Virus record (IMG/VR): IMGVR_UViG_3300028591_003923 | Coordinates: 32,001 to 96,000 of that record | Origin: a virus | Taxonomy: Duplodnaviria > Caudoviricetes | Direction: 5' to 3' (one strand) | Length of the DNA: 64,000 nt | In this document: in pieces, positions 18,941 to 32,921 of the stretch | Layout: each line of letters begins with the position of its first letter | Position numbering within the stretch: position 1 is the first letter of the stretch | Position numbers and translations under genes: made by a program | Notes under the pieces: generated by a model | Seen by the model: the letters and a program-made list of their open reading frames with translations, nothing else | What the model was told of the DNA's origin: nothing | Databases searched by the model: none

Positions 18941-19201
18941 TGGATAGAGAAGACAAGATACAGTTTGGACTAAATATATTATTTGTTGTTTGTGCCGTAT
19001 TGGATTACATCTACGGTTTCACTGCCATTGAAGACCCAGTAATGCGACATTTTAACAACATGATAGTGTTCTATGGTGTTATGACTTATTCTAACGTAGC
19101 ATTTTAACAACGGCGCGCAGCGTACGTTCAAAAATATCTTTTTGACTTTTTTATAAAATTCATATATAATATATATAGAAAGTAAGAAAGGAAGTAACAA
19201 A

Positions 19202-19855
19202 ATGGATGATAGATTTGAACGTGCAAAAAAGCGTATAGGAAATATCATTGCTCACTTAAAGAAAGTTGGTTGGAACTTTAAGTGGGGCTGGGATGGTCCA
19301 TGTCATGAACTACCAGATAACATTGGAGAAGCTTCCGGTGCATCACGTCAGGTTTTTTGGGATTATAACCACGAGGATTTCGTTCTCAAAGTTGGTCTTG
19401 GAAAAGGAGATGAGAAGTACTGTGAAAAGGAAGAACAGGTTTACTGTGCTGCAAAAGAGCAGGGACTGGAAAAGTATTTCGGTTGGACAGCTTATATCTG
19501 TACGATAGACGATATGGAAATCTATGCCATGGAATTTCTTGACTGCGATGAATGTAGGGTTTCTGATGACAGCTACGAGTATCACTATGAGTTATACTGT
19601 GATGAGAATGAGCTTGACCCAAACACAGACGAGGCAAGAGAACAGTGGGAAGACCTGTTAGAATCGAATTGGTCTGTAAGTGTGGATAGTTCAGATGCAG
19701 TTACGGAGTGGTTTCTTGATAGATTAGATTGGCAGGAGCATGATGAGCTTTCAATTTTTCTGAATGATTGGCAGATTAATGACTTACATGCTGCAAACAT
19801 AGGATACAGAGGGAATATGCCTGTATTTGCGGATTACGCAGGATATGGTTGGTAG
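19202..19855 (+). CDS. protein kinase-like fold protein
   Basis: GASR loop, VLK, E helix, DLHxxN catalytic loop, DYAG. Confidence 0.75.
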   Translation: MDDRFERAKKRIGNIIAHLKKVGWNFKWGWDGPCHELPDNIGEASGASRQVFWDYNHEDFVLKVGLGKGDEKYCEKEEQVYCAAKEQGLEKYFGWTAYICTIDDMEIYAMEFLDCDECRVSDDSYEYHYELYCDENELDPNTDEAREQWEDLLESNWSVSVDSSDAVTEWFLDRLDWQEHDELSIFLNDWQINDLHAANIGYRGNMPVFADYAGYGW

Positions 19856-19879
19856 ACCATAGAAAAGGAGGACAGAATT

Positions 19880-20113
19880 TTGCAGGATGAAAAAATTTAT
19901 AGAATCCTTAGAAAGCCTGAGGGTGGATATACTATTGAGTGGTCGTGGTCACATGGCGATGAATGGTATTGGTATGATGAAGCATATACACTTTGGGGAG
20001 CTAGAAGTAAGATTAGAAAATCAGAAAAAAAATTTGATGACCCATTTGTTGTAGGTGTATACAATAATAGGGGAGAAGAAATTGTTGAGGTTAATAAGCG
20101 GTTGAACTTTTAA
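19880..20113 (+). CDS. hypothetical protein (TTG start)
   Basis: AGGAGG RBS; followed by terminator 20098-20135. Confidence 0.6.
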   Translation: MQDEKIYRILRKPEGGYTIEWSWSHGDEWYWYDEAYTLWGARSKIRKSEKKFDDPFVVGVYNNRGEEIVEVNKRLNF

Positions 20114-20139
20114 AGGAAGTTCAACCGTTTTTATTATAC

Positions 20140-21290
20140 GTTGAAGGCGCGCGGTCGTAAAATTTTCCAAAAACCTGTATCAATTTTGGGAAAAATTATG
20201 GTGCGGGCGCAGAGTACGTAGATAATTTTGCAGAAAATATGGGACGGCCGCAGAGTACATAATATCGGGTACATATGGGCGTGTATAATTTTGTAGGATT
20301 TTCCAAAACGAAATATTTTCCAAAAACATAGTGGGCGCATATTTTTCCAAGAATTTCTGCGGTCTAAAATTTTCCAAAAAATTCCAAAATTCGGGTCTGA
20401 AAAAATTAAGAGAAACTTAAACTTTTTTCTACTTATAATCGTATTAAGAAAACTTATACATATAACGTATACGTATATAGTATATATATACGTATACGTT
20501 TTTCTTATACGTAAATAGGCAAACCCGCGAAGCGGGGGAATCGCGGAGGAAAGGGAACGCAAGCGGAGCGCGCGTTGCCGCATCCGTAGCAGGTTCGCTG
20601 AGTGTAGGCGCGAAGCGCCGGAACGGAAGCGAAACGCAGCTTCAACGGAAAACGTATACGTATATAGTATACGTATATAGGGTACGGTAAACCATGGATA
20701 TAAAAAATGGTCCGCGCGCAATGTACGGAAAACGGATACGCAAAAACGTATACGTATATAAGTAAGGTAAACGTATACGTATATAGGGTACGAAAATGTA
20801 GGGGAAGCGGAGGTAAGTAATTGTATAGGTTAAACGTATACAATAAACGTATACGTAAATAGGGCGTAGCGGTCTAGCTAATGCGGATAAGTAAAGCGGT
20901 GGCGTATACGGTAAAGGTAGCGGTAAACGTATACGTAAAGTAAGACTTAGTATGTTAAAGGGTGTTTAACGTACACGTCCAACGTATACGACTTATGTAC
21001 ATTAGGCTCCCATTTGTTGCCACGTGACGTGCAAGGACGGCAGATGTTGCGCATTAGGGGTCTGCAATAGGGGCAGTAGGCATAGGAACGGTATAATTCG
21101 TGGCAATAGGTGGTAGTAAGTGGAAATAAGTGAAAATAAGTGGCTGCCACAGCCATTGACAAAAATCAAATTTTTATTTAAAAAAATAAAAAATTTTTGA
21201 AAAAAACGTCCAACGTATACGAAAAACGTATACGTAAAGGGGTTCTCAACGTATAAGTTGAACGTATAAGTCCCTCTTCAGGCTTTCCGA
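20140..21290. repeat. non-coding repeat zone: TTTTCCAAAA tracts then >10 ACGTATAC(GT) palindromes; candidate origin or genome-end region
   Basis: Repeats seen directly; lies at a transcriptional convergence; ORFs here are low-complexity artefacts. Confidence 0.7.
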
Positions 21291-21356
21291 CGCTTCCGCG
21301 CCAATAAAAAAAGAACAGGTCTTCCGACCTGTCCCTTTGAAGAGGCTTTTCTTACA

Positions 21357-21698
21357 CTAGCAAGCGATGTAGCCTTTCTGCATTCCCTTGCCCTTAATTT
21401 TAACGTCCGTTACGTCCGCCTGTCCGTCCTTTACAGCCTGTCTGCACAGTGCTGAAGCCTTCTGAGTGGACACTCCCAGCTTCTCACCGACCATTGTAGC
21501 TGTCTGCGGCTCGTCAGTAAGGATTTCCGCAACAATCTTCTCAATCAGTGGAGCGTTCTCCTGAGCTTTCTTGGACACTCTCTCGCGTCTCTTAGCGTTT
21601 GCGGCGTCCATTTTCTTCAGCTCTTCACCTGCCATAGCCTGGATTTCCTCTGTCATTGTTCCGTTAACGATTGCTTCCATGAATTCTCTCTTAGTCAT
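21357..21698 (-). CDS. small winged-helix-like DNA-binding protein, paralog 1
   Basis: MTKREF...TATMVGEKLGVSTQKASALCRQ...KGY; paralogs at 25206 and 27155. Confidence 0.8.
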   Translation of the reverse strand: MTKREFMEAIVNGTMTEEIQAMAGEELKKMDAANAKRRERVSKKAQENAPLIEKIVAEILTDEPQTATMVGEKLGVSTQKASALCRQAVKDGQADVTDVKIKGKGMQKGYIAC

Positions 21699-22028
21699 TT
21701 TAATTCTCTCTTTCTCGCGTAGGTCGCGACCCAGTTACTTTGATTTTTTAGGGAGAGAAGTTACTTTTCTCTCTCACTTTCTATATATATTATATAAGAA
21801 TTTCCAGACTTTTTCAAGTTTTTACTTGTTCTTTCCAGCGCATCGGCGGAGCTGGAGTCTGGACGGGAAGAACTTTTCTATTCTTTCCTCTTTCATCTTA
21901 CATATATATTATAGCTAAAATTTAATAAATTCTCAAATTTTATTCAATTTAAAATGCGGCGCGCTCAAAATTTGATTTTTTAAGTCAAATTTCCAGGCGG
22001 CCCCGTTAAAAACTTAAAGAAATACGGG

Positions 22029-22168
22029 CGCAGCTCCGAATTTCCTCCGATGAAGAGGGACAATCGCAGCTCCCCAAGCCTCTTCAGCGCAGCTCCCTCC
22101 GTGTGGAATAATCGCAGCTCGTCCGCGGCGTGTGGACGCAGCTCCCGCGCAGCTCCTTATCGCAGCTC
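22029..22168 (+). repeat. seven direct copies of CGCAGCTC
   Basis: 22029, 22065, 22088, 22113, 22137, 22148, 22161. Confidence 0.85.
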
Positions 22169-22431
22169 CTGGACGGCCATTTATAACGGACGCTCCACGC
22201 GGCGTGGCTGCCGTCGGTGGACGCGAAACAACGACAGACTTCGTTTGTTAATTAACAAACAATCGGCGTACCGAACGGATGTTTGCTGGCAAAATCTGGA
22301 AAAGCTGGGAAAAACTGGAAATTTTTGACGTCTAAAGATTTGAATATTCTGAAAATTAGACGTATAACGTCTAAGATATGGCGTGACGTCTAAGGAAATA
22401 AAAACGGTTCATTTGAACCGTCTTTCTTTTT

Positions 22432-22647
22432 TTATATGGTGTAAAGGTCTGTTCCTTTGTATGGTTTAATTATTCCATTTTCTATCAATTCATTCCATAC
22501 CTTTTCAAGTTCTTCTTCTGTAAATGCTATATCTACATTTTTGAATCCGTTAATAAATGTTGCTTTTTTAAATGGAAGTCCTGCATGATTTGTTGTCCAT
22601 GTTATAACCGCTTTTGTAATTTTCAATTCTCTGATAATGTTAATCAT
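22432..22647 (-). CDS. hypothetical protein
   Basis: GAAAGGA RBS before ATG 22647; terminator near 22400. Confidence 0.6.
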   Translation of the reverse strand: MINIIRELKITKAVITWTTNHAGLPFKKATFINGFKNVDIAFTEEELEKVWNELIENGIIKPYKGTDLYTI

Positions 22648-22648
22648 T

Positions 22649-22855
22649 TTATTTTTTCCTTTCTGCAAGTCTGCGATTAATTTCTTTTTTAACGCTATCA
22701 TAAATATATCCACAATTATAATAATCACAACTATCATAACCCGCCATTATATCATCAAAAACTACTGCAAAGTTTTCTCCATTTTCTACGCAATGGCACA
22801 TTTCTTCTAAATCATCATCACAAATTGTAATTACTCCAGTGTATTCAAAGTCCAT
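22649..22855 (-). CDS. hypothetical acidic protein
   Basis: Promoter and AAAGGAG RBS. Confidence 0.65.
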   Translation of the reverse strand: MDFEYTGVITICDDDLEEMCHCVENGENFAVVFDDIMAGYDSCDYYNCGYIYDSVKKEINRRLAERKK

Positions 22856-22893
22856 TTTTTATTCTCCTTTCTTTTGATTACATTATTATTATA

Positions 22894-23076
22894 TCAGAAG
22901 TCTTTTAATTTGTCAAGTATTATTTGTTCTCTTTTTATGTTTTTATAAAGTCTATTTTCTTTACACCATAGACAAGAGCCATGATTTCTACAAGTACAGT
23001 CTATTGCTTTTGCTCCATAATATGGTTTTCTATGCTCTTTTTTGTGTTCAATTGCTTTGTCTAACATATCTATCAT
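22894..23076 (-). CDS. conserved small basic phage protein (CRNHGSCxWC)
   Basis: Promoter and AAGGAG RBS. Confidence 0.7.
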   Translation of the reverse strand: MIDMLDKAIEHKKEHRKPYYGAKAIDCTCRNHGSCLWCKENRLYKNIKREQIILDKLKDF

Positions 23077-23226
23077 CTCCTTACATTATTATTATATAGG
23101 AATTTTTATATATTGTCAAGTACTTTTTAAAAATATTTTGACGTCTAAGTTACATATAATTTAGACGTTTAACGTCTAAGAATGAGTACAAAAAAACGTG
23201 CTCCCATTTCGGGAGCACGCTCACCC

Positions 23227-23565
23227 TTACTTGGCACGCATCTTTTCGTCATGCTCAATTTTTTTGGCTTTCTCTTCGGCTTTCTTTTTTGCCTTGAGTT
23301 CTTTTTCCTTGAGTTTATGCTCGTAATCTTCGGCTTCGGCATAACCGTCAAATGGTTCTCTGCCTTTGTCTGCGCCAGTAGGAATTGTAATTGTAATTAC
23401 TGCCCACTTTTCGTCACCATTTTCATCAACGCAAGGGGTACAAATTGCATTAGATTTGTACTGTAAAATCTCATAATTATCTTTTGAAAAATATTCTTTG
23501 ATGAGTTCAAGAAAGCCCTGTCTGAGATTTTCATTTGCGATTTTGTTTGATACCATATATATCAC
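23227..23565 (-). CDS. hypothetical protein, PTGADKGREP family paralog 1
   Basis: Shares long identity blocks with 26325. Confidence 0.8.
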   Translation of the reverse strand: MIYMVSNKIANENLRQGFLELIKEYFSKDNYEILQYKSNAICTPCVDENGDEKWAVITITIPTGADKGREPFDGYAEAEDYEHKLKEKELKAKKKAEEKAKKIEHDEKMRAK

Positions 23566-23612
23566 TTCCTTTCAAGTATATGATACTACTTTTATAGTAT
23601 ATTGTCAAGTGT

Positions 23613-23774
23613 TTATAAATAAATTTCTTTTTCTTTTTCGTAAATTTCCATTTCTTCTACAATTATATTTCTTGAGATGCCCTCTTCGTCTGTAAAAACT
23701 TCAAAGTTTTCACAACCGTTTTTTACTGCCCATTCATATAATTCTTTAATTGTATTAATAATATGTGCCTTCAT
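23613..23774 (-). CDS. small hypothetical (53 aa)
   Basis: Promoter and AAAGGAG RBS; read manually. Confidence 0.55.
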   Translation of the reverse strand: MKAHIINTIKELYEWAVKNGCENFEVFTDEEGISRNIIVEEMEIYEKEKEIYL

Positions 23775-23958
23775 TTTTTTATTCTCCTTTCATTTTCTAT
23801 ATATATTATATAGGATAGAATTGTATTTGTCAACAACTATTTTGACGTCTAAAGAAAAATTTTTTATAACTTAGACGTTTAACGTCTAAGGCGGCCGCGC
23901 GGTTAGACGTCAAAAAAAGTATAAAATAAAAGCGGTTTTATGTAAACCGCCTTATTTT

Positions 23959-24627
23959 TTATTTAAAACATTTTCTTCTCATTTTTTTATGCTGTGCCAT
24001 ACAATGAGCGAATATCTCCTTTTCAATTAATACATCTTCAAGTCCTGTGTGACTTTCGTCAAAGTTTTCTTGTCCTGTGATATATCTATAAAGTATTTCT
24101 GCGGTTGCACGCACCTGTCCATTTTTACAAATATATCCGTTGTCTTTCGCCCATTGTTTATACATTTTTTGTTTGCATATTGTGTCCTGTGCCATTTTCA
24201 GAGTATCCCATAAAATTGTACCGTATGGGAGAAAATATCTATATTTTGATTTTGTTAAATATCTCTGTGTTGTTGCGGTTGACTTGTAGTCAAATCTTGC
24301 GTTGTGTGCAATAAGAATATTTATGTTATATTCTTTACAAATGTTATAAATATAATTTTTAATTGTTGCCCACCTTGCGACTTTGCGCTGTCCTGTTTTT
24401 ATTTGTTCTTCATAGCGTGGAATTTTTTCGGCATAATACGCTGATTTCATCAAGTCTTTCATTTTATAAAAGACTTCATAATTAACGAATGAAAAGGTGT
24501 GATATACATTTCCTTTTTTGTCTACTACCGCACCGCCTATGTCGTAAACGATAGGGTCATCCATTGAGTTGGTTGTTTCTGTATCAAATACTAAATAATA
24601 AGTTTTTCTTCTGTCAATTTTTTCCAT
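23959..24627 (-). CDS. DEDDh 3'-5' exonuclease (DnaQ-like), paralog 1
   Basis: FDTET, AHNARFD, HTGLED. Confidence 0.88.
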   Translation of the reverse strand: MEKIDRRKTYYLVFDTETTNSMDDPIVYDIGGAVVDKKGNVYHTFSFVNYEVFYKMKDLMKSAYYAEKIPRYEEQIKTGQRKVARWATIKNYIYNICKEYNINILIAHNARFDYKSTATTQRYLTKSKYRYFLPYGTILWDTLKMAQDTICKQKMYKQWAKDNGYICKNGQVRATAEILYRYITGQENFDESHTGLEDVLIEKEIFAHCMAQHKKMRRKCFK

Positions 24628-24842
24628 TATTTTTTCTTCCTTTCTGTCCTCTTCAAGGACAATATTATAATATCATATTTTGATATAGTTGTCAACATAT
24701 TTTTTGTTGATTTTGACGTCTAAGTTTTAAAAACTTAGACGTTTAACGTCTAAGAATATAAGGCGCGCCTTATCTAGAAGGCGCGAGCGTGAAGAGGATA
24801 CATGCGAGCATGAGCAAGGCGCGAGCAATTGTAATTTCCATT

Positions 24843-25022
24843 TTATTCTCCTTTTGCATTTTTTGCACTTTTAAATTTAAATCGTTCTTTAATCCAGAAC
24901 TTTTTACCACATTCAGAACATTCTACTTCTACATCGGCAGTTACAGAATCTCCTTCGTAATCATAACCCTCGATAAAGATAACTTCATAATCTTCACATT
25001 TACATTTTGGACATCTAACCAT
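24843..25022 (-). CDS. small Zn-ribbon protein (59 aa)
   Basis: CPKC...CSECG; promoter and GAAAGGAG RBS; read manually. Confidence 0.6.
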   Translation of the reverse strand: MVRCPKCKCEDYEVIFIEGYDYEGDSVTADVEVECSECGKKFWIKERFKFKSAKNAKGE

Positions 25023-25205
25023 TTTTTTTATCTCCTTTCTTATTACACTATTATAATATCATATTAATATATCTGTGTCAAATACTTTTTTATAAAATAA
25101 GAAAATTTTTGACGTCTAATGTCTGGAATTTAACTTAGACGTTTAACGTCTAAACTTTTCTCAAAAAAACGAGCACACCTTTCGGTGTACTCGCGCGGTA
25201 GAAAG

Positions 25206-25535
25206 TTACTCTGCGATGAAGTAACCCTTCTGAGTTCCCTTCCCCTTGACCTTGACGTCCGTAACCTTGACGTCCATCTGTCTGAGAAGTGCGCTCGCCT
25301 TCTGTGTTGAGATTTCAACCAACTTGGCGATTGTGCTCGCTGTCATTGGCTCTGTTGTCAGAACCTTTGCGATTTCTGCCTTGATTGGCTCGTTGGCAAG
25401 TGCTGTCTTGCTTGGACGCTCTGCTCTCTTTGCGTTGCGCCTGTCAAGAGATTCAATTTCCTTCTGTGCGAAGTCCTTCATCTCCTGTGATTCTACCATT
25501 GCGATAACGTTCTCCATGAATTCTCTCTTTGTCAT
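25206..25535 (-). CDS. small winged-helix-like DNA-binding protein, paralog 2
   Basis: MTKREF...STQKASALLRQ...VKVKGKGTQKGY. Confidence 0.8.
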   Translation of the reverse strand: MTKREFMENVIAMVESQEMKDFAQKEIESLDRRNAKRAERPSKTALANEPIKAEIAKVLTTEPMTASTIAKLVEISTQKASALLRQMDVKVTDVKVKGKGTQKGYFIAE

Positions 25536-25972
25536 TGTAAGTACCTTTCCTTTCTTTTTTTTCTTTTCTTTAACTTACATATACATTTTATCATATGTTT
25601 TTTATGTTGTCAAGGGATTTTTTAAAGTTTTCCGCAAATTCTTTAAATATTTCTGAAGCAAGATTTTTGGTTTGTCCATGCGTCTTGGTTTTCCGTTCTT
25701 TTTGCTCTCCCTTGGAACAATTATATTGTATCACGTTTCCGTGATATTGTCAAGAGGAAATTTCTTCTTTTTTGAAATAAATTTCAAAACCGACCTCCGA
25801 CCACTCTACTTCTTTCCTCTTGACAAGTATATATTACTACAACTATTATATAATGTCAACCCCTTTTAATAAAATTTTATCTATATTTTTAAAATTTTTG
25901 ACGTCTAAGATTAAAAGGAACTTTTAGACGTTTAACGTCTAAAGAAAAAAGGACGCATGCGCGTCCTCTACA

Positions 25973-26128
25973 TTAATAGTCTTTTGTTATACCTATAAGA
26001 CAAATTATTTTTTCTGATATTTCTGTCGCGGCAATTTCACAACCATCGCTATCATTAATGGCAACCATTACTTTTGCATTAGGACTATATTCTTTTAATT
26101 CTTCGATGAGTTCTGCTACTGTTATCAT
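25973..26128 (-). CDS. small hypothetical (MxTVAELIEEL family)
   Basis: Promoter, GAAGG RBS, terminator. Confidence 0.6.
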   Translation of the reverse strand: MITVAELIEELKEYSPNAKVMVAINDSDGCEIAATEISEKIICLIGITKDY

Positions 26129-26324
26129 TTTTCTACCTTCTTTCTGCTCCCCTTGGAACAATTATATTATAACACTTTCAAAGTGAATGTCAACACTTTT
26201 TAAAAATTATTTTGACGTCTAATTTATTTAATTTTGGATTAGACGTTTAACGTCTAAAGCGGACGGCCGCCTTAGACGTCAAAAAATGCTTAAAAAAAGA
26301 ACAGACTTTCGTCTGTTCTCTTTT

Positions 26325-26657
26325 TTACTTTTGTTCACGCATCTTTTTATCGTGTTCAATTTTTTTTTCTTTTTCGGCTTTCTTTTTCTCTGCCTTAATT
26401 TCCTTTTCTTTCAACTTGTGAGCATAGTCCTCTGCCTCTGCATAACCGTCATAAGGCTCGCGACCTTTATCTGCTCCCGTTGGAACTTTTACAGTGAGCA
26501 CAATCCATTTTTCGTTGTCCTCTTCATCAATTACGGGAATTGCAATCTCATTAGATTTTACCCGCAGAACCTCTTCATTTTCTTTGAAGAAATTGGTAAT
26601 AGTTTCAAGATAAGTTTCTCTTAATCTTTCGTTAAGTACTCTGTTTGAAAGTGCCAT
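26325..26657 (-). CDS. hypothetical protein, PTGADKGREP family paralog 2
   Basis: GAAAGGAG RBS before ATG 26657. Confidence 0.8.
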   Translation of the reverse strand: MALSNRVLNERLRETYLETITNFFKENEEVLRVKSNEIAIPVIDEEDNEKWIVLTVKVPTGADKGREPYDGYAEAEDYAHKLKEKEIKAEKKKAEKEKKIEHDKKMREQK

Positions 26658-26728
26658 AATTTTTTCTCCTTTCTTATTTTCTATATATATTATATCACAA
26701 ATTTTTAATTTTGTCAAATTATTTTTTC

Positions 26729-26971
26729 TTAAGAAATTATACCACCAAGAAGTTTTATAGCGAGCAAGCCACAAGTAATGGCAAGACATGAACAGTCTTT
26801 GACTTTATCCGCAAGCGGACGTTTGAGCACGAACGTGCGAGCAACCGCGCACACATTAGCGGTAAGATATATGCACTGTCCGATAATAAAGTTACTGCCT
26901 ACTGTACACTGTCCGATAATAAGACATATAAGAACAAAATAATTAAGTGTTTCAAAAATTTTTTCTTTCAT
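26729..26971 (-). CDS. small membrane protein
   Basis: Three hydrophobic segments; promoter and RBS. Confidence 0.65.
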   Translation of the reverse strand: MKEKIFETLNYFVLICLIIGQCTVGSNFIIGQCIYLTANVCAVARTFVLKRPLADKVKDCSCLAITCGLLAIKLLGGIIS

Positions 26972-27154
26972 TGTTTTACTTCCTTTCTTTTCCTTTTGTA
27001 ATTAAATTATATATTATTAAAATATGTTTGTCAAGTATTATTTTTTAAAAATGACGTCTAATGTTTTGTTAATCTTAGACGTTTAACGTCTAAACATTTC
27101 CCCAACAAAAAACCGTCACATTTCTGTGACGGTTTCCGTGACGGTTAGCAAAGT

Positions 27155-27496
27155 CTATGCAACCTTGTACCCTTTCTGAGTACCCTTACCCTTTACCTTT
27201 ACATCTGTTACAGTGAGCGTACCATCTGTAACCATCTGTCTGCAAAGAGCACTGACTTTCTGTGTGGTGAGTTCAAGACCCTTTCCGATTTCGCTTGCAA
27301 CGGTGAAGTCCTTTCCATTAAGGAAGTCAAGGATGTTTGTTTTAATTGGCTCGTTTTCAATTGCTTTCTTTGATGGCTGATTTGCTCTCTTTGCGTTTCT
27401 TGCATCAAGTTTTGCAATTGCATTTGTTGCATGTTCCATCATTTCGTCATTGATAATTCCATTCATAACGTTTTCAAAAAATTCTCTGTTTGTCAT
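27155..27496 (-). CDS. small winged-helix-like DNA-binding protein, paralog 3
   Basis: MTNREF...TTQKVSALCRQ...KGY. Confidence 0.8.
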   Translation of the reverse strand: MTNREFFENVMNGIINDEMMEHATNAIAKLDARNAKRANQPSKKAIENEPIKTNILDFLNGKDFTVASEIGKGLELTTQKVSALCRQMVTDGTLTVTDVKVKGKGTQKGYKVA

Positions 27497-27907
27497 AATT
27501 TTACCTACTTTCTTGCGTTGGTCGCAACCCTTTTTAATTTTACTTTTGGGAGTTCCTTTTGTCTCCCTTTACCTTACATTTATATTGTAGCAAACTTTTT
27601 TAAGTTTGTCAATATCTTTTTTAGATTTTTTTAAAAAAGTTTTTCGAGTGCGCACTCCATAAGTTCTGACACTTTAGTAGTCACGGATTAGTTTTTCCTC
27701 TATTCACTGGGGAGTACCCTTTTTCTCTCTCCCTTGGAACAATTATATTATATCACTTTGAATATATAAGTCAATACCTTTTTTAATTTTGAAGAGGATT
27801 TTTTGACGTCTAATTTATTTAATTTTGGGTTTAGACGTTTAACGTCTAAGTCAACCGCGCGCCTTAGACGTCAAAAATTCTAAAAAAATAAGGGGAATTT
27901 CTCCCCT

Positions 27908-28657
27908 TTATTTAATGATAATCGTATCTTTACTTTTTAATATTCGGTAACTTTTGCAAGAAATTTCCAAAAGTTTTTCTTTATCGTGTAATATTGTGAG
28001 AATTTTGGAAGTTTCTCTAACTATACTTCTTTTTATAGGATAATTTCCAAAAATTTCTGCGCCTCTGTTTAAAGTTTCAAAAAGAATTTGTGTTTCTATT
28101 AAACTATCACTTAATGCGGTATGGTCTTCGATAAAGTCTATATTATCGGAAATATATTGCATCACTGTTTCTGCGGTGGTAGAATAATTACCACTTTCTG
28201 TAAATCTTTCGTTATCTTCGCAAAACTTTTTATATTCATTATCAATAATAAATTGATGAACAAAACCCCTTATATCTTTTATTTCTACATCATCAAATGG
28301 ATTATTGCATTTAAACCAATCGCAATTGAAATCGAAAACTTTTTCATCAAACTTACAATTATAGGCAAATGCGCATTCTACTTCAAACTTTTTAAAATCT
28401 CTTATCATTTTCTGGCAAATGTAACCAAATTTTTCCATTTTGGTTTCTTTTGCTCTCATTGCTTTAACATAAATCGGTCTTTTTTCTGCGTAATATGCGG
28501 AAGCAAAGCACATTTTATTATGCCAAACTTGTTCTACAACAAAATCTTTTTGGGAAAGAATTTGTTCTGTTTCTACGTTAGCAATTACATAACCAATATT
28601 ATAACAAAAAGGTTTATCAAGTGAAGTGGTTTCTGTGTCAAAAATTACAATATTCAT
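27908..28657 (-). CDS. DEDDh 3'-5' exonuclease, paralog 2
   Basis: FDTET, AYNCKFD, HTALSD. Confidence 0.88.
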   Translation of the reverse strand: MNIVIFDTETTSLDKPFCYNIGYVIANVETEQILSQKDFVVEQVWHNKMCFASAYYAEKRPIYVKAMRAKETKMEKFGYICQKMIRDFKKFEVECAFAYNCKFDEKVFDFNCDWFKCNNPFDDVEIKDIRGFVHQFIIDNEYKKFCEDNERFTESGNYSTTAETVMQYISDNIDFIEDHTALSDSLIETQILFETLNRGAEIFGNYPIKRSIVRETSKILTILHDKEKLLEISCKSYRILKSKDTIIIK

Positions 28658-28826
28658 TCTATATTCTCCTTTCCTTTTGACTACATATATTATATAGGAT
28701 AGAAGTTACTTTGTCAAGACTTTTAGGAAAAAATCGAAAGATTTTTTGACGTCTAAACTGAAGAGGAACTTATTTTAGACGTTTAACGTCTAAGATACGT
28801 TGAGTGCGCGAACTCAACCGGCGCAC

Positions 28827-28976
28827 TCAACGAAGGAGGAAAAGGAATATATTAAAAGAACTGTATTGCGGATTTTCAGTAAGATTTTTTAGGATAATTT
28901 CTATCCAAGAAAAACCTATCCATAAAAGTAATAAACAATTTATAAGAATTATTATTTTCCAAATTATATTTTTCAT
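28827..28976 (-). CDS. small membrane peptide (49 aa)
   Basis: Promoter and AAGGGG RBS; hydrophobic; read manually. Confidence 0.5.
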   Translation of the reverse strand: MKNIIWKIIILINCLLLLWIGFSWIEIILKNLTENPQYSSFNIFLFLLR

Positions 28977-29149
28977 TTTGCCATACCCCCTTGACAATTA
29001 TATTATAACACTTTGAAGAGGAAAGTCAAGTGTTTTTTTAAAAAAGTTATAGGAATTTATTTAGACGTTAAACGTCTAAGCAAAATCTTTTCGGAAATAA
29101 TCCGAAAAGATTTTGAAAAGATGAGGTAAATAAAAGTGATTTTTTACAA

Positions 29150-29350
29150 TTAATCATTTTTTGCTTGTCTGAAGAGGCAAGACAATAGGAACATTACTAT
29201 CCATAAAAGAAGTACCCATTTCCATGTAAAAGTTATTCCAACAATTTTACACACTGCGAATACTATTAGCGCATCGATACCAAATTCTATGATATTAGCG
29301 ATAATTAATGTTGCGATTATTGCAATTATTGTTTTCCCTGTTTTATTCAT
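29150..29350 (-). CDS. small membrane protein
   Basis: Hydrophobic; promoter and AAAGGAG RBS. Confidence 0.65.
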   Translation of the reverse strand: MNKTGKTIIAIIATLIIANIIEFGIDALIVFAVCKIVGITFTWKWVLLLWIVMFLLSCLFRQAKND

Positions 29351-29513
29351 TGTTTTTACTTCCTTTCTGTTCTCCCTTGGAACAATTATATATTACCATA
29401 TCATATACGTAATGTCAATAGATAAATTAAAAAAAGATAAATTTATTTGACGTCTAAGTTTGAAGAGGGACTTAGACGTTTAACGTCTAAAATAAAAAGG
29501 TTAAAAACAACCG

Positions 29514-29966
29514 CTATGCGATTGCTTTTAACGTATCAATTATATTATTTACATTATATGCTTTACCTTTCCATTCTGTTCTGTTTTTTTCTTCGTCATC
29601 GAATAATATTCCTTGTGGTATATTTACAATACTTGACTTTGGTGTTCCATATGATACTATATGTATTTCGTCAAATGTTACGCTTTTAAGATGTTTATTT
29701 AGCCATTTAAGTTTTGCGTTTGTTACTGCTTTATCATATTCAATGTTTGAGCCTTTTGATAGCCAGCTGACTATGCCCAGCTTGTAGCCTTTACGTTGTA
29801 GCTGATTAAGCAGGCGCGCCAGGTGCGACAGGTGCAAAAGTGCAGGAGCCAGCTCGTATGGTGTAGGGTCATAGCTCCGTAACATATCAAGCCACCCTTT
29901 GACACCGTAAAGGTCAGCAATAGTGCCGTCCATATCAAAATATATTGCTTTTCCAGTTTCTTCCAT
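29514..29966 (-). CDS. HAD-superfamily phosphatase (5'-nucleotidase-like)
   Basis: FDMDGT motif I, LFDD motif IV. Confidence 0.82.
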   Translation of the reverse strand: MEETGKAIYFDMDGTIADLYGVKGWLDMLRSYDPTPYELAPALLHLSHLARLLNQLQRKGYKLGIVSWLSKGSNIEYDKAVTNAKLKWLNKHLKSVTFDEIHIVSYGTPKSSIVNIPQGILFDDEEKNRTEWKGKAYNVNNIIDTLKAIA

Positions 29967-30306
29967 TTGGTTTTCTCTCCTTTCCTTCACTGTACCTATA
30001 TTATAGCACTTCATCACGTAGAAGTAAAACGTCTAATATTAACATTAAGGCAAGTTTTTGACGTCTAAGATTTTAATCAAATACTTTAGTACTTTAAAAC
30101 TTTAACGCATTAAAGTATTAACACTTTAATGCGTTAAAGCACTAAAGTATTTTTGACGTCTAAGATTAGACGTCTGACGTCTAAGGTTTAATGCTTTAAC
30201 GCATTAAAGTATTAAAATAAGTTTGACGTCTAAGATTTTAACGCTTTAAAACTTTAGTGCATTAAAGTGCCAAAGCAAAAAAAAGAACGGACGTTTGTCC
30301 GCTCTT

Positions 30307-30585
30307 TTACCACTCCATTATTGTTTTTAACTGAGACATTATGTCACGTGCTGTATGTTGTTTGTAGGCGTTATGTGCAAGGGTATTTATATATATACCA
30401 TCGTGTTTGTTATCAGCGTGTACGCTCAGCACCTTATTATTATAGTGTACGTGTATAGCGCTGTATTTATAGCGGTCTACCCACTCACAAGTAACGTGTA
30501 CTAAGTTATACGCTCTGATGTCACATAGCATTACATAAAGCTCGTTAAGCTCGTGCTCATTATCTAATTTATTATATTTAATCAT
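30307..30585 (-). CDS. hypothetical protein
   Basis: GAGGAG RBS before ATG 30585. Confidence 0.6.
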   Translation of the reverse strand: MIKYNKLDNEHELNELYVMLCDIRAYNLVHVTCEWVDRYKYSAIHVHYNNKVLSVHADNKHDGIYINTLAHNAYKQHTARDIMSQLKTIMEW

Positions 30586-30649
30586 TTTATACTCTCCTCT
30601 CTTCTCTTCAAGCGGAGCGGAGCACGTGCTCCGCTCCATTGTATTATCA

Positions 30650-31087
30650 TTAGTGGCAAGCTTTGAACTGTTCAAGCGTTTCAAACTGTTCAAGCAAGCT
30701 TGCGAACAGTGTGCTTTTGCGTTTGCTGTTCTTGTATGACTGTATGGCTCTTACAGTCGCGCCGTTTGTAGCTCGTTTCATTCTAATTAAGCCACAAGTA
30801 TCAAGCACGTTGATAAACTGTTCTACTGTGAGCACGTGCGCACGTTCAGGCGCATTGTAGTCGGTTTTATTATCCATTGTATAGATAATATAATCATTTG
30901 AATTGATATTGTTGTTTATTTCACCGCAATTTGACTTAATCTCAATTGTTAAACCGTGATATTTTACGTCATGCTTACCTTTTGCGCTAACTCTGTTGAC
31001 ATTTCCTTTGTTTCCGTTCAAATAATGCTTTACAGCCTTTTCAAATTCTTTCCCGAAAAATCCGCTATCATTCTTTTTAATTTCCAT
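30650..31087 (-). CDS. putative PD-(D/E)xK nuclease-like protein
   Basis: GKEFE...HDVK...IEIKS motif. Confidence 0.6.
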   Translation of the reverse strand: MEIKKNDSGFFGKEFEKAVKHYLNGNKGNVNRVSAKGKHDVKYHGLTIEIKSNCGEINNNINSNDYIIYTMDNKTDYNAPERAHVLTVEQFINVLDTCGLIRMKRATNGATVRAIQSYKNSKRKSTLFASLLEQFETLEQFKACH

Positions 31088-31386
31088 TGTTTTTACCTTT
31101 CCTTTCCTTTCCTTAACTATTGCCTTGAATAGGTTAGTTTATTCAACCGGACTTATTTATTAATTTGTCTATGTCCTTTTGACAATAACAATATATCAGA
31201 TATAAAAACACTTGTAAAGCGTTTTTTAACATTTTTCTTGTTTTGACGTCTATTTTTTTTATTTTGACGGCTAAAAAATCATAAAGGGGGTATATTCTAC
31301 TACATGTAGTGGTATACCAAAAAAGCTATACCATATATAGTGATTCAAATCTTTTTGAGAAAATTATGTATATTTATACATTTTAA

Positions 31387-31459
31387 AAACGTTGAAATTT
31401 CAACGTTTCTGGAATCTATTCATTTTACAGTTTCCAAAAACGTTGAAATTTCAACGTTT
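31387..31459. repeat. two perfect 22 bp palindromes AAACGTTGAAATTTCAACGTTT
   Basis: 31387-31408 and 31438-31459, in the divergent gap before the packaging operon. Confidence 0.85.
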
Positions 31460-31610
31460 AGGGGCGGTACTATACAGGAAGTTTATACATTTTTGTGTAT
31501 AAATATACGCCGGCCTGCTACATTATCTCCACGAAATTAAAAATTCAATCCCCGAAATTTGACTTCCCCTCAGCCGTGTGCTATAATATAACTGTAGGAG
31601 GAAATGGACT

Positions 31611-32921
31611 ATGAACAGATTAAAACTAGACTTCAGCTTAGAAACAGCTGAGGAACGCAAAAACTTTATAGACACATACATTGTCCAATTCCCCGACCTT
31701 ACTCAGACAGAAGCGGAAACCATTGCGGATTATTTGCTGTGGGGCAAGGACGCACAAGGACAGCCTATAGGTGCGGGAACGGGCCTTAAAACACGATGGA
31801 CGAAAGGCGACGACATTGAATCGCTTGACGCCGTACTTGATAATCCGGCGTATACGAATGTCCAGTTCCAGCCATTCACCGAAGCCACGCCGTTAAAGGC
31901 CGAGCGCAAGGTATTTAATCGCCAGGCCGTACGTGAGGCCGCACCGGACTACCTAAGAGACTCGTTTGAGGCTTTATGGAGGAAAATTGACGAGGATGAC
32001 CTATTAATTAACTTCTACGAACTGGGCGTAGGTAAGCGGGATAAGCCACCGCGCAAGGAATTACTTGACCGATTCAGTGAGTCAGATCAGGTTGTACTTA
32101 GTCGGCGCGCAGCCGAACTTAGTCAGTTTCAGTATTTGAAGTTGAGACATGAGCTTGTGGAGTTAAGACGGGAGCAATTTACGATGAGAGATTCGTTTGT
32201 AAATACGTTAAACCCACATCAAGGACCTACGGGACTAGACCGAGTCCAACAACATTTCGGACTTGACTTGGACATACTCCCGCTAGGTACTGCGACCGGC
32301 CGAACCGGAGAATTAATTTTCAATACAAACTTTGATCCGCGCGCCCTGAACGAAGAACAACTACGTTTAATCGCTCAGTTACTTAACGAAAAACGCGAAG
32401 TTGAGCCAGGCCCAACCGTAATTGATTTCCGTGACTTAGAAACAGTTTATCAACTTTACCTTATGCGAGAGGACTGCGCGGACCAAATTGAACGCGAACA
32501 CGAAATTAACTTCGTTGAAGGCAATTTGGAAGATATATATCGTACCTTAGACTTCTACGAATCAATTGCCGATTTAACCGAAGCGCAGCATAAACTGTTA
32601 CGAATGAAGGAGGCCCACGTACACAACGCCGATATAGCCCGGGTACTAAACGAGGAATTCGGTAAGAATTATACGGCGAACTATATAAGTACAATATTCA
32701 GACAAAAAATTATTGAAAAGATTAATGCGGCCGCCCAACTTCATTTAGATTCGGTAGAAAATTGTTTCTATCCAGAGAACTTTAAACAATGTACTGAGTG
32801 TGGAAGAGTTTTACTTTTAGACGAAAGAAATTGGGTTAGAAAGAACAAATCAAAGGATGGATTTCAGAATAGATGTAAGAGATGTGATAGAAAGAAAAGG
32901 AAGAGAAAAGGAGGCGATTAA
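31611..32921 (+). CDS. putative DNA-binding regulator (C-terminal sigma-r4-like HTH plus Zn ribbon)
   Basis: LTEAQ...NADIARVL...NYIS; CTEC...CKRC; promoter at 31559-31587. Confidence 0.6.
   Translation: MNRLKLDFSLETAEERKNFIDTYIVQFPDLTQTEAETIADYLLWGKDAQGQPIGAGTGLKTRWTKGDDIESLDAVLDNPAYTNVQFQPFTEATPLKAERKVFNRQAVREAAPDYLRDSFEALWRKIDEDDLLINFYELGVGKRDKPPRKELLDRFSESDQVVLSRRAAELSQFQYLKLRHELVELRREQFTMRDSFVNTLNPHQGPTGLDRVQQHFGLDLDILPLGTATGRTGELIFNTNFDPRALNEEQLRLIAQLLNEKREVEPGPTVIDFRDLETVYQLYLMREDCADQIEREHEINFVEGNLEDIYRTLDFYESIADLTEAQHKLLRMKEAHVHNADIARVLNEEFGKNYTANYISTIFRQKIIEKINAAAQLHLDSVENCFYPENFKQCTECGRVLLLDERNWVRKNKSKDGFQNRCKRCDRKKRKRKGGD

Follow-up and report, generated by a model that had tools for sequence, protein, structure and literature searches.

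The window analysed here is a 64,000-nucleotide stretch of a siphovirus genome (bases 32001-96000 of the 129,514-bp IMG/VR virus record IMGVR_UViG_3300028591_003923, rated as complete by CheckV), and our subject is a leftward array of small gene cassettes in it that is punctuated by copies of a single palindromic element. The core of this element, TTAGACGT-N3-ACGTCTAA, occurs in 13 copies between window positions 22356 and 30184, compared to 0.01 matches in shuffled sequences. None of the 26 half-sites in the 13 palindromes departs from the exact sequence, and the central triplet is TTA or TAA in 11 copies, ATA in one and CTG in one. A first-pass annotation of this DNA had already counted about 12 copies with an invariant half-site and had not noticed the element elsewhere in the window, all of which agrees with our searches; in fact, no palindrome lies outside the array anywhere in the complete 129.5-kb genome. 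The half-site ACGTCTAA on its own is found 48 times in the window (1.8 expected), with 45 of the 48 lying within 22328-30233, and only seven isolated half-sites are scattered outside the array over the full 129,514 bp.

Most palindromes are accompanied by further half-sites. A third, promoter-proximal half-site (TTTTGACGTCTAA on the + strand, TTAGACGTCAAAA on the transcribed - strand) is present in 11 units at a distance of 11-20 bp from the palindrome, and a fourth, inverted one lies past a GC-rich linker on the terminator side at 23903, 26272 and 27864, i.e., in the three copies for which it had been described before. Read on the - strand, a unit begins after the terminator of the preceding unit and runs through the palindrome, a spacer of 11-20 bp, the third half-site, an A/T-rich stretch, a promoter of the form TTGACA-16/17-TATAAT and a ribosome-binding site (RBS) into one to three small genes. 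In 11 of the 13 units, the element is located between a terminator and a near-consensus sigma-A promoter, and a scan of the region returned 31 terminator-like sites (5.7 expected) as well as seven promoters scoring 12/12 on the - strand. The previously proposed order of terminator, element, promoter, RBS and one to three genes therefore holds, except that the unit at 22328-22393 has no sigma-A promoter and the unit at 29061 lacks the third half-site. The elements are, in window coordinates and with the gap being the distance between the proximal half-site and the -35 hexamer:

22328-22393, - strand: element 1, composed of half-site 22328-22335, palindrome 22356-22374 (centre ATA) and an extra direct half-site 22386-22393; no sigma-A promoter detected downstream
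23141-23179, - strand: element 2, proximal half-site and palindrome; promoter TTGACA-17-TATAAT at 23119-23091, gap 21 bp
23845-23910, - strand: element 3, symmetric form with four half-sites; promoter 23833-23805, gap 11 bp
24716-24753, - strand: element 4; promoter 24695-24667, gap 20 bp
25112-25153, - strand: element 5; promoter 25081-25053, gap 30 bp
25901-25942, - strand: element 6; promoter 25859-25831, gap 41 bp
26215-26279, - strand: element 7, form with four half-sites; promoter 26193-26166, gap 21 bp
27054-27093, - strand: element 8; promoter 27034-27006, gap 19 bp
27806-27871, - strand: element 9, form with four half-sites; promoter 27774-27747, gap 31 bp
28749-28793, - strand: element 10; promoter 28717-28689, gap 31 bp
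29061-29079, - strand: element 11, palindrome alone without third half-site; promoter 29029-29002
29450-29490, - strand: element 12; promoter 29418-29390, gap 31 bp
30029-30275, no strand assigned: array-head cluster of six half-sites at 30029, 30061, 30156, 30166/30177 (palindrome, centre CTG) and 30226, interleaved with CTTTAACGCATTAAAG-type inverted repeats
31243-31275, - strand: two degenerate direct half-sites (TTTTGACGTCT and TTTTGACGGCT) upstream of the promoter (31218-31190) of a gene for a 145-aa protein

The presumed early region has two classes of promoters. Six strong near-consensus promoters on the - strand (26717, 22916, 27612, 25753, 25613 and 23608) are not accompanied by an element, so that the element marks terminator-promoter junctions and not promoters as such. 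Several of the six carry a TG extension, and they lie inside cassettes with no terminator or element upstream.

Phasing with the promoter and replacement among relatives

The distance between the element and the -35 box had previously been taken to vary freely and thus to speak against a simple activator site. This was a misreading, since the distance is quantised at helical repeats: The gaps in the window are 21, 11, 20, 30, 41, 21, 19, 31, 31 and 31 bp, which fall into steps of about 10 bp (11, 19-21, 30-31 and 41 bp) and are strongly phased at a 10-bp period (Rayleigh R 0.92, p ~2e-4). The same geometry is found in 23 further array-bearing loci with 194 distinct palindromes; a sigma-A-type promoter can be recognised within 75 bp to one side of 147 of them. 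Here, the gap from the palindrome to the -35 hexamer measures 8-10 bp at 98 sites, 17-19 bp at 14 sites and 27-31 bp at 24 sites (R 0.84), and the phasing persists even if the modal class is omitted (z ~20). With a promoter spacer of 17 bp, the centre of the palindrome comes to lie near -54, -64 or -74. Across 232 promoter-oriented sites, on contigs with a GC content of 32-46%, full information is confined to the 8+8 bases of the palindrome; the central triplet, flanks and spacer hold hardly any, and the spacer keeps its length while its sequence is near random. Conservation of spacer length without conservation of spacer sequence implies selection on geometry and speaks against simple copying of modules. 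Restriction of the site to integral helical turns from the promoter, the hallmark of a factor that must act from one face of the helix, is thus seen in the window, in its relatives and also with other palindromes.

These other palindromes came to light among related phages. While an exact-pattern scan found the palindrome of the window in 12 IMG/VR contigs, a scan with free centre found arrays in further contigs of metagenome-assembled genomes (MAGs; among the matches listed) with up to 23 palindromes in one locus, and loci with different palindromes were retrieved via the family-A protein encoded by several cassettes (see below). The palindrome TTAGACGA-N3-TCGTCTAA is present in 15 copies in genome G006, with gaps of 12, 23 or 31-33 bp, and TTAGATGT-N3-ACATCTAA in 14 copies in genome G007, with gaps of 8-10 bp. 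Other relatives have a TCGTACGT-N3 type (gap 8 bp), a AGTAGTCT-N4 type (8, 18-19 or 28 bp) or a TTGTTAA-N4-TTAACAA type (22, 33 or 43 bp), and no promoter was detected beside the GTATACGT-N3 and GGTTAGTT-N2 types. Even the closest relatives of the window, loci L167 (91% nucleotide identity over the A-B cassette) and L168 (80%), have different elements upstream of the same genes, and the complete genome that is closest in core genes, G008 (86% in the terminase), has GC-rich elements containing GGCCGGCC instead.

The first-pass annotation had offered an operator for one protein that controls an early host-takeover module as one of two readings, and sites that are locked to promoters on one helical face, invariant in sequence, and replaced by other palindromes at the same position in relatives fit this reading. 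Because related phages keep the layout with other palindromes, a conserved host factor is unlikely and the binder should be phage-encoded; to judge from these comparisons, it probably co-evolves with its sites and changes its specificity fast.

Several other features of these relatives deserve mention. Genome G008 (L258-L259) shows UP-like A/T tracts in front of around 20 consensus early promoters between 97,700 and 107,200; GC-rich upstream elements, most of them containing GGCCGGCC, are found at about half of these promoters, and six GGTTAGTT-N2-AACTAACC sites as well as four GTATACGT-N3 sites are found elsewhere in this genome. The loci L169, L170, L211, L214 and L216, which encode family A, have paired AACGAAC-N4-GTTCGTT palindromes resembling the LexA boxes of Firmicutes. 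Three genomes with the palindrome of the window (G001, G002 and G003; L148-L162) have many in-frame TAG codons in late genes (11-12 in the terminase and 8-9 in the portal gene of G001 and G003, 4 in total in G002) and none in replication genes, which points to a recoding of TAG that would be confined to late genes; the phage of the window has no such breaks.

The phage and the plasticity of its cassettes

Near-identical DNA comes from a sheep-gut metagenome, and parts of the array were found again in goat, bovine and sheep gut runs of 13 studies. Motif-bearing contigs were binned into MAGs of Clostridia, Eubacteriales and Acutalibacteraceae from ruminant guts (among the matches listed), and a megablast search with the array gave no DNA-level match among GenBank phages. 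The large terminase shares 42% identity with those of Geobacillus virus E3 and Alicyclobacillus phage KKP_3916 and about 34% with the YonF-type terminases of SPbeta-like Bacillus phages; judged from this protein, the phage appears to be SPbeta-like only at a distance. Among its genes for replication and nucleotide metabolism are those for a RecJ-like protein, a UvrD-type helicase, DNA and RNA ligases and a dUTPase, a RuvC-like resolvase is encoded as well, and a 1325-aa protein may be a Pol III alpha-type polymerase going by its size and conservation alone. No recombinase had been seen in the window, and this absence extends to the complete genome: Profiles of tyrosine recombinases (Phage_integrase, PF00589, at E<=1) and serine recombinases (Resolvase, PF00239) had no match in all 129.5 kb, while the positive control for the former matched 14/14 genomes and the control for the latter was positive, too. 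We treat the phage as lytic-type because its genome has neither integrase nor resolvase.

Most genes of the array are ORFans, including lineage-specific ones, and three families occur as paralogues (A three times, B and C twice each). The genes with recognisable features and those at the head of the array are:

26325-26789, - strand: cassette gene of family B; paralogue at 23227-23565
27155-27496, - strand: cassette gene of family A, MarR-like winged-helix protein; paralogues at 25206-25535 and 21357-21698
27908-28657, - strand: cassette gene of family C (phrog_20187, DEDD-exonuclease-like); paralogue at 23959-24627
29514-30017, - strand: cassette gene for a HAD/NT5C-like 5'-deoxyribonucleotidase
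30307-30585, - strand: 92-aa ORFan of no recognised family, between the following gene and the array-head cluster
30650-31087, - strand: gene for a 145-aa protein of PD-(D/E)XK fold, first of the leftward early region and candidate partner of the palindrome
31611-32921, + strand: 436-aa sigma-like protein with C-terminal zinc ribbon, divergent from the array and heading the rightward structural operon

The order of the HAD gene and of families A, B and C as well as the number of units between them differ in every relative, and it is only the sigma-like gene and the PD-(D/E)XK gene that stay at the head. For example, locus L167 has a 62-aa cassette upstream of the HAD gene and is missing three cassettes of the window. 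Compared to L167 (91% nucleotide identity over one cassette) and L168, five of the seven ends of homology blocks lie within 45 nt of a component of the element by manual count, and contigs from four independent ruminant-gut runs share single cassettes at 88-99% identity that are bridged by unrelated DNA; joints with one short side in those contigs are unreliable and were set aside as signs of excision. The earlier expectation that whole units come and go and change their order among relatives was borne out, and the seams appear to lie near the elements. As to the route, general recombination between the repeated regulatory modules appears likeliest on this analysis, not a dedicated recombinase, and we take the shuffling of cassettes for a consequence of the repeated modules and not their primary function.

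A nuclease-fold protein at the head of the array

Around 50 phage proteins were compared to the Pfam and PHROGs collections without finding any classical repressor, and there is no GntR domain among the phage's proteins. What stands out is the 145-aa product of the first gene of the leftward region, which has 49 homologues and no Pfam domain. Its structural model (pLDDT 91.4) gave PD-(D/E)XK nucleases as all of the top 15 structural matches (Z 7.3 to 4.2), led by NhoI (7.3), I-Ssp6803I (6.2) and Hjc (5.8-5.0) and also including HhaI and RecU; the Atlas lead for this protein is PDDEXK_16, and a Foldseek search of the model against the Protein Data Bank (PDB) returned nothing at E<=0.001. We conclude from this model that the protein is predicted to have the restriction endonuclease-like alpha/beta core of the PD-(D/E)XK superfamily. 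The putative catalytic motif D40...E49-x-K51 is recognisable in an alignment of 36 sequences with D40 and K51 invariant and E49 nearly so, and in a set of 34 sequences, all three residues are kept by 82-95% of the members paired with TTAGACGT-type palindromes and by every member paired with the other three palindrome types. A diverged branch, joined to the family by hhalign at 98.6%, has the motif as well.

Genes of this family lie at the head of the array in genomes G000-G005 and also in G006 and G007. Among the loci with TTAGACGT-like 8-N3-8 arrays, 32 of 47 carry such a gene, as does every genome with arrays of this kind, and the remaining loci either share a contig with a gene-bearing locus (L019, L034, L093 and L198) or are short fragments that may end before the array head. 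Conversely, the family was not found in 10 loci and six near-complete genomes (G008-G013) with other operator types. Since G008 is nearer to G000 than the carriers are and has neither gene nor palindrome, the link between the two appears to be more than shared ancestry. A pattern search built from the alignment recovered two loci only, its patterns being too specific. On the strength of these sequence comparisons, the 145-aa protein is the best candidate partner of the palindrome, at a probability that we place a little short of even.

Other proteins were tried as binders and rejected. Family A, with 2,606 clusters of homologues in metagenomes, gives a profile match to ZitR/AdcR at 5e-5 and includes some homologues with a PF12802 domain; since its recognition helix (STQKASALCRQ type) is identical across all operator types, it is not the determinant of specificity, and two helix types also occur with the same operator. 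An assignment of family A to the GntR type failed as well (hhalign probability of 0.6% against a GntR regulator). The family-A paralogues have an N-terminal helical extension and no described function. For an 83-aa winged-helix protein of the replication module, the pattern of identities does not track the operator type, and the YopR protein as a representative of YopR/MrpR had no match in the genome at E<=10. Searches with tblastn for family A and for the 145-aa protein gave no match in 50,697 GenBank phages. Small open reading frames (ORFs) between the PD-(D/E)XK gene and the first palindrome include no family conserved across relatives; in locus L013, and in this relative only, a 65-aa protein with the signature of AbrB/SpoVT swapped-hairpin DNA-binding proteins is encoded on the - strand 45-242 bp downstream of the PD-(D/E)XK gene.

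Both ends of the array have additional repeats. At its head, for which relatives have equivalent clusters of half-sites, positions 30073-30275 contain dense CTTTAACGCATTAAAG-type inverted repeats interleaved with four TTTTGACGTCTAAGATT direct repeats, a possible regulatory hub or origin-like region. The promoter (31559-31587) of the divergent sigma-like gene is closely preceded by two copies of the perfect palindrome AAACGTTGAAATTTCAACGTTT that lie 51 bp apart (31387-31459), and this pair could be an operator for the early-to-late switch. At the other end, beside element 1, there are four TTTnCCAG repeats spaced by 9-10 bp (around 22283-22325), and an ORF-poor stretch at 21703-22103 has the highest contig depth in 4/4 metagenomes compared. 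The region 21703-22325 may be a conserved non-coding element or RNA; a search of 19000-32500 against Rfam at E<=0.1 gave sub-threshold chance hits only.

An operator of early promoters, its rivals and its relatives in kind

We judge it probable, if by no means assured, that the element is a cis-regulatory operator at early promoters of a lytic-type, SPbeta-distant siphovirus of ruminant-gut Clostridia. A phage-encoded protein, in the simplest case occupying the 8-N3-8 palindrome as a dimer and the proximal half-site with one more subunit, would dock on a fixed helical face just upstream of the zone where the alpha-subunit C-terminal domain (alpha-CTD) of the host's sigma-A RNA polymerase and UP elements meet, so that it would face both the alpha-CTD and the UP-like A/T tract. 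Bound there, it would co-ordinately switch the first promoter of every early cassette. Given that junction promoters are already consensus and unmarked internal promoters equally strong, shut-off, trapping of polymerase or insulation from read-through would be likelier than activation. The module of terminator, operator and promoter, repeated about every 650 bp, would also form the seam at which cassettes are duplicated, deleted or swapped by general recombination. The 145-aa protein encoded at the array head is the candidate binder, and the cluster of six half-sites (30029-30233) together with the degenerate half-sites at 31243-31275 may serve as autoregulatory or titrating sites. In a bolder version of this proposal, a large clade of uncultured gut phages would have all of its early promoters under the PD-(D/E)XK protein, and not a helix-turn-helix repressor, as a sequence-specific master regulator (or nickase) that docks on a co-evolving, phased palindrome whose copies double as seams of cassette exchange; in this full form, we regard the idea as tentative and rather doubtful.

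Several observations weigh against such an operator and its proposed binder. The six strong internal promoters show that promoter activity does not need the element, and all promoters and terminators are predictions based on matches to consensus sequences only. In the window, it is the proximal half-site alone that is phased, and the distances from the palindrome to the promoter or to the half-site have no register (R 0.07-0.19 for the palindrome). With regard to the 145-aa protein, the intact D..ExK residues make it possible that it cuts or nicks DNA instead of regulating, its co-occurrence with the palindrome is not phylogenetically independent, and only about 10 residues are conserved among the proteins paired with an identical 16-bp site, which is weak for a base-specific reader. 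Moreover, no alignment column is invariant in TTAGACGT-type proteins yet changed in TTAGACGA-type ones.

In one alternative, the palindromes are targets of a PD-(D/E)XK site-specific endonuclease or nickase, with breaks at cassette borders spurring recombination or a homing-like spread of cassettes or with nicks acting on transcription or topology. The predicted fold with its intact motif, the strict co-occurrence of the gene with this type of palindrome, and cassette mosaicism with block ends near elements would all fit, and so would the RuvC-like resolvase, which makes the PD-(D/E)XK protein dispensable as a junction resolvase. A cleavage target, however, has no need to stay in helical phase with the -35 box as the sequence of the spacer changes, and we found no C5 or N6/N4 methyltransferase that could shield the phage's own 13 sites, so that we consider this alternative unlikely. 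Register is also hard to reconcile with elements that bind no protein at all and persist by descent and concerted evolution as part of a duplicated module resembling the promoter-early stem-loops (PeSLs) of other phages, with homology for recombination as their sole role. There is precedent for this in the PeSLs themselves (PMC2839356), composite terminator-promoter modules are repeated here as well, 5' leaders are also common to several units, and the order of cassettes differs among relatives. Yet mere descent would have to keep 16 bases invariant in 232 sites on contigs of 32-46% GC while leaving flanks, N3 and spacers with almost no information, to hold spacing constant to 1 bp or move it by whole helical turns, and to place different palindromes before the same genes in close relatives; we rate this explanation as distinctly improbable. 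A third possibility is that a host transcription factor (e.g., of GntR/HutC type) binds the palindrome and lets early phage transcription sense host physiology. The identical palindrome indeed lies about 30-45 bp upstream of genes with GntR and UTRA domains in two Sphaerochaetaceae genomes (L055:6987-7005 and L073:1654-1672), and the phage encodes no GntR domain of its own. But related phages from the same kinds of gut samples have many different palindromes at the same position, the type of palindrome follows a phage gene, and single genomic matches are close to chance (about 139 in 596 Gb by our own estimate, with at least 120 matches found), which leaves a host factor very improbable. An identical 8-N3-8 palindrome was also seen between genes for a PucR-type regulator and an MFS transporter in several species of Arthrobacter/Paenarthrobacter (L029, L030, L033 and L041); these sites and those of Sphaerochaetaceae probably serve as operators of cellular genes, their shared sequence being a coincidence.

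The other reading of the first-pass annotation, which had compared the element to integron attC or pdif sites, did not stand. A site for a dedicated recombinase, be it integron-like or dif/pdif-like with host Xer proteins, would capture or excise whole expression units, and cassettes bounded by palindromic sites whose content varies among relatives are what one might expect from it. However, the complete genome encodes neither a tyrosine nor a serine recombinase, and the cassettes are self-expressed, with eleven units having their own near-consensus sigma-A promoter and most an intrinsic terminator. The element, with its fixed promoter register, is a short invariant palindrome of 19 bp with 16 invariant bases and flanks devoid of information, and it is neither attC-like in structure nor built around a dif-like central region of 6-8 bp with XerC/XerD arms; its difference between close relatives is also unlike an expected host Xer site. 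We thus regard a dedicated recombination site as extremely improbable. Hardly more can be said for a hairpin in RNA or DNA that would serve as secondary terminator or processing site, a reading to which we give next to no credence: An 8-bp stem with a 3-nt loop could form, and T runs follow a few copies, which the scan marked as terminator-like, but the stem is absolutely conserved in sequence without covariation and in register with the -35 box, and the palindrome is mostly untranscribed because a proper intrinsic terminator precedes it and the next start site follows it.

The preferred reading, an operator, can be compared to several known systems. Integron attC sites are 57-141 bp long and conserved in their folded structure but not in sequence, and their cassettes are promoterless, driven from Pc and accompanied by IntI. 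The array shares with integrons its short gene units that are split by a recurrent, imperfectly palindromic site and its variable cassette content; in contrast, it has no integrase, self-expressed and self-terminated cassettes, and an invariant site of 19 bp. Closer in geometry is protein p4 of phage phi29, which binds inverted repeats upstream of the -35 box (A2c/A2b/A3), contacts the alpha-CTD and represses the strong early promoter A2c by holding polymerase in a way that depends on helical position. Both systems place an inverted repeat upstream of -35 with dependence on helical position, but p4 has a handful of sites without an array, and its fold and site sequence are unrelated; no p4 homologue turned up here, no search having been aimed at one. 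The host-takeover module of phage SPO1 comprises many short early operons of small ORFans, each with a strong sigma-A promoter and a terminator as in the array described here, though SPO1 is an unrelated phage whose early promoters are not known to share an upstream palindrome.

The PeSL cassettes of T4-type phages combine repeated terminator and early-promoter modules that act as seams for the exchange of gene units (Arbiol et al. 2010, PMC2839356; Comeau et al. 2014, PMC4122927). In both cases, a terminator forms a composite with a strong host-type early promoter, copies of this composite separate small genes, mostly ORFans, of a hyperplastic early region, and the presence and order of gene units vary among relatives, with seams at the modules in PeSL phages and apparently near them in the array. 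What differs is the lineage, here an SPbeta-distant siphovirus of gut Firmicutes, and the addition of an invariant 8-N3-8 palindrome and half-sites in helical register to the module, which has not been described for PeSLs. In phage SPbeta itself, SPBRE operators are bound by the master repressor MrpR/YopR (Kohm et al. 2023, PMC10516654), a protein with the fold of a tyrosine recombinase without its enzyme activity, and these operators had been predicted in silico as regulator sites long before the protein was found (PMC10516654). The likeness lies in one short conserved element at many early promoters of a large Firmicute siphovirus. SPBRE is unrelated in sequence, being of AAATACAAAAAATATGTATA type, a motif shared by the regions upstream of aimR, yopM, yopV, yonT, yonX, yorE and yonP, and the motif of the window is absent from 100 kb of SPbeta examined save for three stray half-sites. 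With no YopR homologue and no integrase, the system of the window is not a lysogeny repressor system, and its site lies upstream of -35 in phase and not over or around the promoter. A literature search for the half-site strings returned primers only and no paper on the motif. Operator arrays and promoter-terminator cassettes are thus known in kind, and a phased, lineage-specific upstream palindrome linked to a nuclease fold has not been described.

One implication is that an integron-like look of cassettes and palindromes can arise from PeSL-like modules without any recombinase. If the link to the nuclease fold is true, it would be the second case after MrpR of SPbeta in which an enzyme fold was recruited for, or coupled to, the control of phage transcription. 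If the element is an operator, one short site would be a handle on the whole early, i.e., host-takeover, programme of a widespread clade of uncultured 100-135-kb phages of ruminants and other guts, whose early promoters could be marked directly from sequence and for which a single switch protein would be predicted. It would also mean that operator specificity diversifies between close relatives in a manner resembling immunity groups, and does so in phages without integrases.

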